Assembly: GCA_001793855.1 (NCBI GenBank)
Contig: MGIR01000001.1
Coordinates: 8,645-72,644, forward strand
Length of the DNA stretch: 64,000 nucleotides
Source: Candidatus Wolfebacteria bacterium RIFCSPLOWO2_01_FULL_45_19
Lineage (GTDB): Bacteria > Patescibacteriota > Minisyncoccia > UBA6257 > GWB1-45-9
Direction: 5' to 3'
In this document: piece after piece, positions 58,678 to 58,797 of the stretch
How the letters are laid out: every line of letters begins with the position of its first letter
Position numbering within the stretch: position 1 is the stretch's first letter
Notes under the pieces: model-generated
The model's input: only the letters and a program-made list of their open reading frames with translations
Databases searched by the model: none
Told to the model about the DNA's origin: nothing
Translations under genes and position numbers: made by a program

Positions 58678-58797
58678 TCCCGTTAGAAATCGCGGACGCG
58701 TAACCAGAAATATGATATACATAAAAAGGTCAAAAGTTGTGAGCAATCTAACAGAACGTGAGATGCTTTTTGCGTCCGCGTCCTATTTCTAACGGGA
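58678..58797. repeat. 120 nt hairpin with ~22 bp stem filling the rplB-rpsS gap
   Basis: tcccgttagaaatcgcggacgcg ... cgcgtccgcgtcctatttctaacggga. The right arm ends at the rpsS ATG. Confidence 0.7.

Follow-up and report, generated by a model that had tools for sequence, protein, structure and literature searches.

Why should a long hairpin stand exactly between rplB and rpsS, inside the S10 operon of a bacterium? The question is raised by a stretch of 64,000 nucleotides (hereafter the window, meaning all the DNA that was analysed) from Candidatus Wolfebacteria bacterium RIFCSPLOWO2_01_FULL_45_19, a member of the Patescibacteria, or candidate phyla radiation (CPR): positions 8,645 to 72,644 of contig MGIR01000001.1, assembly GCA_001793855.1. 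A reading made from the letters of this DNA alone (the sequence-only reading) had proposed that the 120-nt hairpin is either an insertion resembling a miniature inverted-repeat transposable element (MITE) or an RNase III processing site. Here, we show that it is an insertion with terminal inverted repeats (TIR) and a target-site duplication, that it belongs to a widespread multi-copy family, and that it sits in, and rebuilds, the start codon of rpsS. Our verdict is that the element is a MITE of a new family dwelling in start codons. The best overall explanation, which we hold to be probable, joins this insertion to a family linked with GIY-YIG nuclease genes and to a presumed relay of translation across the hairpin.

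The hairpin is found exactly where it had been described (Table 1), and the earlier outline of a stem of about 22 bp around an AT-rich loop of about 70 nt holds. The stem has a perfect outer helix of 13 bp, made of the terminal inverted repeats, and an inner helix of 9-10 bp, with the 4-nt bulge TCCT between them; the loop has 70 nt and 31% G+C. The left arm (58678-58700) is TCCCGTTAGAAATCGCGGACGCG, as had been read, whereas in the right arm (58771-58797), TGCGTCCGCGTCCTATTTCTAACGGGA, the first letter was given as c and is really t, which makes a G-U pair. The left arm begins at the eighth base after the rplB stop codon and the right arm ends on the A of the rpsS ATG, both as stated before. 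The junction thus runs rplB AAA TAA tt A TGAG, then TCCCGTTAGAAAT CGCGGACGCG, 70 nt, TGCGTCCGCG TCCT ATTTCTAACGGGA, and then TGAG CAGG of rpsS. The plus-strand RNA is predicted to fold at -46 kcal/mol, against -28.8 ± 3.4 kcal/mol for 200 dinucleotide shuffles (z = -5.0; 0/200 as good), and the minus strand of the element gives z = -6.2. The element occurs in contigs of five independent assemblies with identical RplB, so that it is no assembly artefact; three of the five carry a C-to-T change at its third base, where a G-U pair is kept on the sense strand. A scan of positions 54000-64000 against Rfam 15 at E<=1 gave no match on the element, and it shows no similarity to the periodic repeat families of 7 and 8 nt in the window, in agreement with the earlier remark that it is unrelated to the heptamer families.

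What did this junction look like before? Without the element and one TGAG, the window reads TAA-TT-ATGAGCAGG, an ordinary tightly coupled junction. The three closest relatives that could be fetched (80-83% RplB identity) have rplB-rpsS spacers of 11, 15 and 24 nt, all without the element, and their rpsS genes start ATGAGCAGA or ATGTC (MSRS...); this comparison omits a relative with 85% RplB identity, whose contig stops before rpsS. The sequence-only reading had called for such a comparison and had held that a single-copy element conserved in all relatives would argue for an ordinary structural spacer: the opposite was found. Three further orthologous pairs of filled and empty sites (L202 vs L208; L210 vs L191; L220 vs the window's own rpmJ start near 16680) have one single ATGNN, either ATGCG or ATGAA, at each empty site. 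In the last pair a family member (L220 4089-4205) is inserted at the rpmJ start codon of another Patescibacteria genome, and the start of the window's rpmJ (L36; 16579-16803, minus strand) is the orthologous empty site. These empty sites confirm A|TGNN as the insertion target. Here, the 120-bp non-autonomous element entered A|TGAG at the rpsS start in a forebear of the present Candidatus Wolfebacteria lineage, and TGAG was duplicated on its entry. The original A and the left TGAG make a second ATG, 2 nt past the rplB stop, and the right junction regenerates the rpsS ATG because the element ends in A.

Further copies, which had also been called for, are absent from the 64-kb window when up to three mismatches are allowed, and none was found in a scan of viral contigs, but hundreds exist in other Patescibacteria genomes. 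We scanned metagenome contigs for CGTTAGAAAT-N80-110-ATTTCTAACGGG, requiring exact matches, and one genome per species for the exact pattern of the window's own subfamily, with the right end GTCCTATTTCTAACGGG. The metagenome scan gave at least 120 loci with about 150 elements of very different interiors, often several per contig. The genome scan gave at least 119 loci for the subfamily and, among the matches listed, every named host belongs to the Patescibacteria. These hosts are Kaiser-, Giovannoni-, Nomura-, Niyogi- and Lloydbacteria, Paceibacterota/Parcubacteria, and metagenome-assembled genomes labelled Saccharibacteria; several copies may occupy one such genome, with at least six in one case. 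Overall, dispersed copies occur at more than 250 non-homologous loci. We found no description of this family in the literature searched, which covered few papers from subscription journals and in which PMC11270868 and PMC12641178 alone bore on the subject, and it is apparently, for now, an undescribed repeat family of Patescibacteria.

These copies share one anatomy. A family element reads Y-CCCGTTAGAAAT ... ATTTCTAACGGG-R, and its two terminal bases are complementary in 256 of 261 copies; with respect to the gene that follows, it always points the same way. Of the 261 copies, 179 stand between exact direct repeats of 4 bp, while any other repeat length is found at 15 or fewer; the duplications are TGAA, TGGA, TGAG, TGCG, TAAA, TCAA and their complements. 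Copies ending in C...G keep ATG on the left and read GTG at the right junction, which shows that the regenerated start codon takes its first base from the element. In the window's subfamily, an inner helix (CGCGGAC/GTCCGCG) and the TCCT bulge are conserved as well. We counted the pairs of this helix directly, the RNAalifold consensus having mis-registered it: its second pair has 10 double, compensatory changes, and single mismatches on the sense strand are G:T in 36 cases vs A:C in 15. In other lineages the ends vary with both arms changed together (CCCATTAGAGAT/ATCTCTAATGGG, CCCTGGTAAATA/TATTTACCAGGG, CCCTGTTAAAT/ATTTAACAGGG and TTAGAGAT/ATCTCTAA), and the second and third of these pairs bound GIY-YIG genes. 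The window element, at 120 bp and with a sole frame of 39 codons without Pfam match, falls within the size expected of MITEs (less than about 600 bp, without transposase gene) and has the inverted repeats, the target duplication of fixed length and the multiple dispersed copies that define them. The proposal of a MITE-like insertion is thus strongly supported by the repeats and the 4-bp duplication, the absence from the closest relatives, the hundreds of copies, and the filled and empty sites.

Two other readings of the repeats were tried and abandoned. A 'GTAAA' subfamily aimed at stop codons was suspected, but just 3 of its 26 copies lie at the end of a long open reading frame (ORF). An integron attC site, which has R''(RYYYAAC) before R'(GTTRRRY) around an imperfect hairpin beside a cassette ORF and close to an integrase, was considered from core-like heptamers; these stand in reverse order (GTTAGAA...TTCTAAC), each off the consensus at one position, without a cassette array and without IntI. 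Separately, members of the family also form tandem arrays and nested insertions (L027 12-117; L061 6132-6366; L030 1276-1385; L054 1219-1343; L066 1868-1979), among them mini-hairpins of 27-50 nt that are scarcely more than two arms.

How can a gene such as rpsS bear an insertion in its start codon? Among the 117 unique copies of the subfamily, the element directly abuts ATG in 104 and GTG in 10 (114/117), and an ORF of at least 60 codons follows in 107. Motifs resembling Shine-Dalgarno sequences are rare upstream of the left ATG (3/111), and a hexamer resembling a -10 box, TANN[AT]T, peaks exactly 6 nt upstream of it (20 copies there and a further 15 at 7-9 nt, over a background of about one per position). 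This suggests that many of the host genes are leaderless, and in leaderless genes the regenerated ATG is internal and without ribosome-binding site. The frame opened by the left ATG tends to run through the element, and it ends either at a TAA in the right repeat, 7 nt before the A of the host ATG, or at a TGA overlapping the host ATG. Such read-through frames, ending at -7 or +1, were observed in 64 of 101 copies vs 19.8 expected from shuffled interiors, and their share was 58% among copies that had a left start in frame vs 22% among the others (Fisher p = 0.002). Element lengths modulo 3 are distributed 79:33:22 (chi-square p = 1e-9), with peaks at 112, 115 and 118 nt, although in all these statistics the copies are not fully independent of each other. 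The corresponding frame of the window opens 2 nt past the rplB stop, and 4 nt separate its own stop from the rpsS ATG.

From these frames we infer that translation is relayed across the hairpin to rpsS by termination and reinitiation. The preference for G:T over A:C mismatches on the sense strand of the inner helix also counts in favour of such a relay. Ribosomes ending rplB would re-initiate at the ATG at 58673, translate the 39-codon frame while melting the hairpin in passing, terminate at the TAA at 58790-58792, and re-initiate 4 nt further on, at the rpsS ATG. The translational coupling of the S10 operon would thereby be relayed across the insertion, and the hairpin itself would be a by-product of the inverted repeats, which RNase III may additionally cut.

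The family also has members that carry a gene. These full-length elements measure about 280 bp; they match the short ones in their ends (12 of 13 bases), in the kind of duplication and in the position at start codons, and encode a single 86-aa GIY-YIG nuclease. At locus L213, two elements of 277-278 bp with ends TCCCGTTAGAGAT/ATCTCTAACGGGA and TGAA duplications, both at start codons, contain one 86-aa ORF each with the GIY-YIG domain PF01541 (E = 1.7e-17; 63.9 bits vs a cut-off of 22.6). The nuclease frame is that of the duplicated host ATG (MNPVRD...), the right repeat supplies its C-terminal codons (...FLSLTG), and its stop codon, TGA, overlaps with the ATG that is regenerated. The subterminal TCCT(A/G)T of the window's subfamily is found in these elements too, where it encodes F-L. 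Three more contexts (L250, L253, L255) have the same ends, duplications TGAG, TGAA or TGA(T), and a nuclease stop that overlaps the start of the co-oriented downstream gene; at L250 the element stands between two coupled genes, like the one in the window. Homologues of the nuclease make up at least 3628 clusters. Among the best 120 of these, 60 have 86 aa and 45 have 94-95 aa, 37 begin with M-x-P-V/A/L-R-D/N/E, i.e. the host ATG and left repeat translated, and 98 end in FLSLTG, encoded by the right repeat; several other nucleases begin MIPLE, the same left repeat one base out of register. The 86-aa protein is a catalytic domain only. Among solved structures, the small UPF0213 protein 1zg2 comes nearest to it (E = 4e-4), and the nuclease scores 16.9 bits against the model of group I intron endonucleases, whose cut-off is 56.

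It is well supported that the window's MITE is a non-autonomous counterpart of the GIY-YIG-encoding elements. No DDE or HUH gene, nor any other candidate transposase, was found in the loci inspected. A conventional transposase was also sought between distant arm pairs; these proved to be merely separate small elements flanking ordinary genes (an SPFH protein, triose-phosphate isomerase, a sigma factor and others). We infer that the GIY-YIG protein, the only candidate enzyme found, mobilises the family. A bolder version is possible, and we advance it tentatively: the 86-aa nuclease would mobilise an autonomous element of about 280 bp, of a new class of transposons with inverted repeats, target duplication and a GIY-YIG catalytic protein, living in start codons and perhaps also subject to RNA-level processing. 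Such an element would borrow the promoter and the (often leaderless) AUG of the host for its own expression, and would return the ribosome to the host gene by way of an ATGA or TAA-N4-ATG junction, rebuilt with its own last base.

Several observations weigh against parts of this account. The invariance of the repeat core is partly a matter of design, because the scans demanded exact matches, and the window's own genome has only one copy within the 64 kb. The third-codon-position relaxation expected of a protein is absent from the relay frame, which suggests a frame kept open and not one conserved as a protein; in about 40% of copies it is interrupted by premature stops. Two antisense frames are open too, in 34-37% of copies, and the signal of an open frame is for that reason weaker than the shuffle control alone implies. 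The link to the nuclease has its own difficulties. The full-length elements end in TTAGAGAT / ATCTCTAA and the MITE in TTAGAAAT / ATTTCTAA, which differ at one compensated position, and none of the GIY-YIG elements found has exactly the ends of the MITE. The interior of the MITE does not look like a decayed nuclease gene: with a hidden Markov model of 120 nucleases, none of 135 copies scored above about 5 bits in any of six frames. There is no GIY-YIG gene in the 64-kb window. Finally, we know of no GIY-YIG enzyme that catalyses strand transfer, and classical homing does not yield a 4-bp duplication.

Among the alternatives, the one that survives best is a hairpin of the host, its stem selected as an RNase III site or as a stabiliser of messenger RNA that separates the rplB and rpsS transcripts of the S10 operon. 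In Neisseria, RNase III does cut certain MITEs, the Correia elements. The helix of about 22 bp is predicted to be very stable and offers about two turns of double-stranded RNA, as a substrate of the enzyme should, and mismatches favour G-U pairs on the sense strand. CPR bacteria keep the enzyme, together with RNase J and PNPase (PMC12641178). Yet, a selected processing site is hard to reconcile with an element that is missing from the same junction in the nearest relatives and that precedes more than 100 unrelated genes; inverted repeats, duplications and empty sites speak of insertion at the DNA level, and the open relay frame with the 3-nt periodicity of lengths implies an RNA translated uncut. 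We consider this alternative unlikely, and RNase III cleavage would at best have followed from the hairpin secondarily, without accounting for its origin.

Could the element instead be removed from the RNA? A helix flanked by direct repeats might serve as an excision signal for an intervening sequence, which would restore rplB-TAA-TT-ATGAGC. The idea gains from rRNA genes of CPR bacteria, where insertions are reported to include GIY-YIG-encoding ones that are not introns (PMC11270868), and from family arms that bracket inserts at tRNA position 37/38, inserts that leave the tRNA non-functional unless processed. Selection for an open frame and for a frame-preserving length would be senseless in a sequence that is spliced out, however, and the Rfam scan showed no ribozyme or known intron signature. 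To our knowledge, no bacterial enzyme performs such splicing, and we regard this route as improbable.

A third possibility, which we judge likewise improbable, is a single-stranded DNA hairpin of the REPIN/RAYT or IS200/IS605 kind (HUH Y1), which would bring along a pentanucleotide and insert 3' of it. The element forms a single hairpin throughout and has a fixed orientation to the gene, some changes in the inner arms are compensatory, and an asymmetric reading gives a 5-nt repeat RTNAA with a base always pairing with R. We tried this asymmetric reading, in which the extra Y would act as a guide as in IS200/IS605, and rejected it for the symmetric one: a perfect 13-bp inverted repeat with an exact 4-bp duplication (179/261) is simpler and fits better. 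In addition, C/G-ended copies with ATG on the left and GTG on the right assign the first base to the element, the GTAG-type head of REP sequences is absent, and 1.5 Mb of flanking DNA contains no Y1 or RAYT gene, whereas a GIY-YIG gene lies between identical ends. As for a chance palindrome or an assembly artefact, it hardly deserves consideration for an element that none of the 200 shuffles matches in folding, that is identical or nearly so in five independent assemblies and that has hundreds of homologous copies.

Table 1. Positions of the insertion at the rpsS start, of its host genes, and of other features named in the text (window coordinates unless a locus is given).
Feature	Position	Strand	Remarks
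120-bp non-coding mobile element (MITE), T to A	58678..58797	+	same architecture at >250 other loci
Left terminal inverted repeat TCCCGTTAGAAAT, 13 bp	58678..58690	+	terminal pair complementary in 256/261 family copies
Right terminal inverted repeat ATTTCTAACGGGA	58785..58797	+	holds relay-ORF TAA 58790-58792; ends on the A of the rpsS ATG
Inner left arm CGCGGACGCG	58691..58700	+	subfamily-specific helix
Inner right arm TGCGTCCGCG	58771..58780	+	pairs with 58691-58700
Asymmetric bulge TCCT, 4 nt, 3' side of stem	58781..58784	+	conserved in subfamily
Left copy of 4-bp target-site duplication, TGAG	58674..58677	+	with A58673 gives duplicated start ATG 58673-58675
Right copy of target-site duplication, TGAG	58798..58801	+	bases 2-5 of rpsS
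Relay ORF, 39 codons	58673..58792	+	duplicated ATG to TAA through whole hairpin
rplB, upstream host gene	57849..58670	+	stop TAA 58668-58670
rpsS, downstream host gene	58797..59117	+	true start supported by homology
Lineage-specific terminal-repeat variants	L174 603-700 and 1508-1535; L210 237-301; L016 1583-1860; L146 5245-5545
tRNA-bracketing units	L055 7534-7640; L052 525-631; L079 3626-3730 (also 3572-3941, 4988-5093); L101 1334-1438; L015 628-735
Periodic-unit hairpins	57355-57451, 54341-54445, 62401-62488, 63064-63135, 46859-46946, 34181-34265, 34649-34733, 13845-13894; also 755-845, 61203-61272

The arms of the family are also found around complete tRNA genes (Pro-TGG, Ala-CGC, Pro-CGG). 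Four of these units sit at position 37/38, in the anticodon loop of another tRNA gene, and in silico deletion of the insert yields canonical tRNA-Lys(CTT), tRNA-Gly(TCC) and tRNA-Glu(TTC), as called by ARAGORN. For the outer tRNAs this would mean either disruption or some form of processing of the RNA. The family may thus additionally be handled by an RNA-level processing or splicing activity in CPR bacteria.

Other features of the window stand apart from the element. The gap between rpsJ and rplC (55983-56310, 330 nt) holds a terminator-like hairpin, a promoter of the form TTGACA-N17-TATAAT, and about 130 nt of structured, G+C-rich sequence closed by a terminator; nothing in it matches Rfam at E<=1. 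The S10 operon may thus harbour a small RNA gene here. Intergenic hairpins made of 8-nt periodic units, (AAGAACNN)n facing (NNGTTCTT)n, and a family with a period of 7 nt are unrelated to the element, and several of the periodic-unit hairpins lie between ribosomal protein genes. The rplC gene (56310-56732) encodes an L3 protein of 140 aa, with 140-143 aa in relatives, when bacterial L3 usually has about 210 aa. By its length in relatives, the short L3 looks like a trait of the lineage and not a disruption.

What does this insertion mean? An odd structure in one of the most conserved operons of bacteria is explained as a tolerated parasite and not as a regulator. With it, a very abundant family of repeats comes to light in the Patescibacteria, whose genomes are usually called streamlined and repeat-poor. 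Essential genes (rpsS here, rpmJ in L220) survive an insertion in their start codon with the ATG regenerated and, we presume, translation relayed. A minimal GIY-YIG protein is nominated as a possible new kind of transposase and, if this is true, its element of about 280 bp would be among the smallest autonomous mobile elements known. There are consequences for annotation as well. Public gene calls (L001-L005) start rpsS at TTG 58770, within the element, and give a protein of 115 aa instead of 106; the 106-aa protein has no record. Spurious '...PISNGM' N-terminal extensions are found on many other proteins encoded downstream of family members, and 'MNPVRD' on the nuclease.

How do these elements compare with known ones? 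Correia elements, or NEMIS, are close in habit: they too are non-coding, of some 100-160 bp, with inverted repeats and a short duplication, present in many copies at gene borders and co-transcribed as a long hairpin. They have a characteristic 26-bp Neisseria inverted repeat, a TA duplication and an IHF site. In the present family the ends are unrelated, the duplication has 4 bp (TNNA-like, mostly TGAA, TGGA or TGAG), insertion is inside a start codon whose ATG is regenerated, the hosts are Patescibacteria, and the candidate partner is a GIY-YIG gene instead of a DDE-type insertion sequence; the repeats, duplications and hosts thus place it outside Correia/NEMIS. Rickettsia palindromic elements likewise are palindromes, about 100-150 bp long, which persist within translated sequence of reduced genomes. 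Yet, they lie in frame within ORFs and join the host protein, whereas here a separate upstream mini-ORF stops before the host ATG, and in-frame fusion to the host was seen in 0/89 and 1/111 of the subfamily copies with a left start.

The REP/REPIN-RAYT system resembles the family in its abundant extragenic hairpin repeats and in an enzyme gene of single-copy type flanked by the same repeats. It differs in that here there is a target duplication, no GTAG head, and a GIY-YIG candidate instead of an HUH Y1 gene; the 4-bp duplication and the absence of a RAYT gene in the loci inspected set the family apart from it. Free-standing GIY-YIG homing endonuclease genes (Seg of phage T4, I-TevI) and the UPF0213/YhbQ proteins share with the full-length relatives the GIY-YIG domain and the aspect of a small, selfish-looking gene between host genes. 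However, the protein here has 86 aa without a separate DNA-binding domain, and comes with 13-bp inverted repeats, a 4-bp duplication and MITE derivatives, none of which characterises homing endonuclease genes. The latter spread by homing into cognate empty alleles, lack inverted repeats and target duplication, and usually bear an added DNA-binding domain; the repeats and duplications here, at many unrelated loci, do not correspond to a homing mode.

In the matter of translation, the junctions recall termination-reinitiation signals (ATGA or TAAnnnnATG), where a stop lies a few nt from the next start, and bypassing systems (T4 genes 38 and 60, mitochondrial 'byp'), where a hairpin stands between two identical short sequences. 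The difference is that here a mobile element supplies the coupling module, and nothing points to hopping, since the frame is open and ends at a stop. A parallel in the same hosts comes from rRNA genes of CPR bacteria, in which GIY-YIG-encoding insertions that are not introns, as well as short uncharacterised ones, have been described (PMC11270868). They share with our elements the hosts, the name of the protein family, a nature distinct from group I and group II introns, and scattered sites, but the accessible part of that account describes no inverted repeats, duplications, start-codon insertion or MITEs. These insertions may be the same elements. The family of the hairpin before rpsS is linked with the non-intron insertions of CPR rRNA genes, so far unexplained, and also with the nested tRNA genes.
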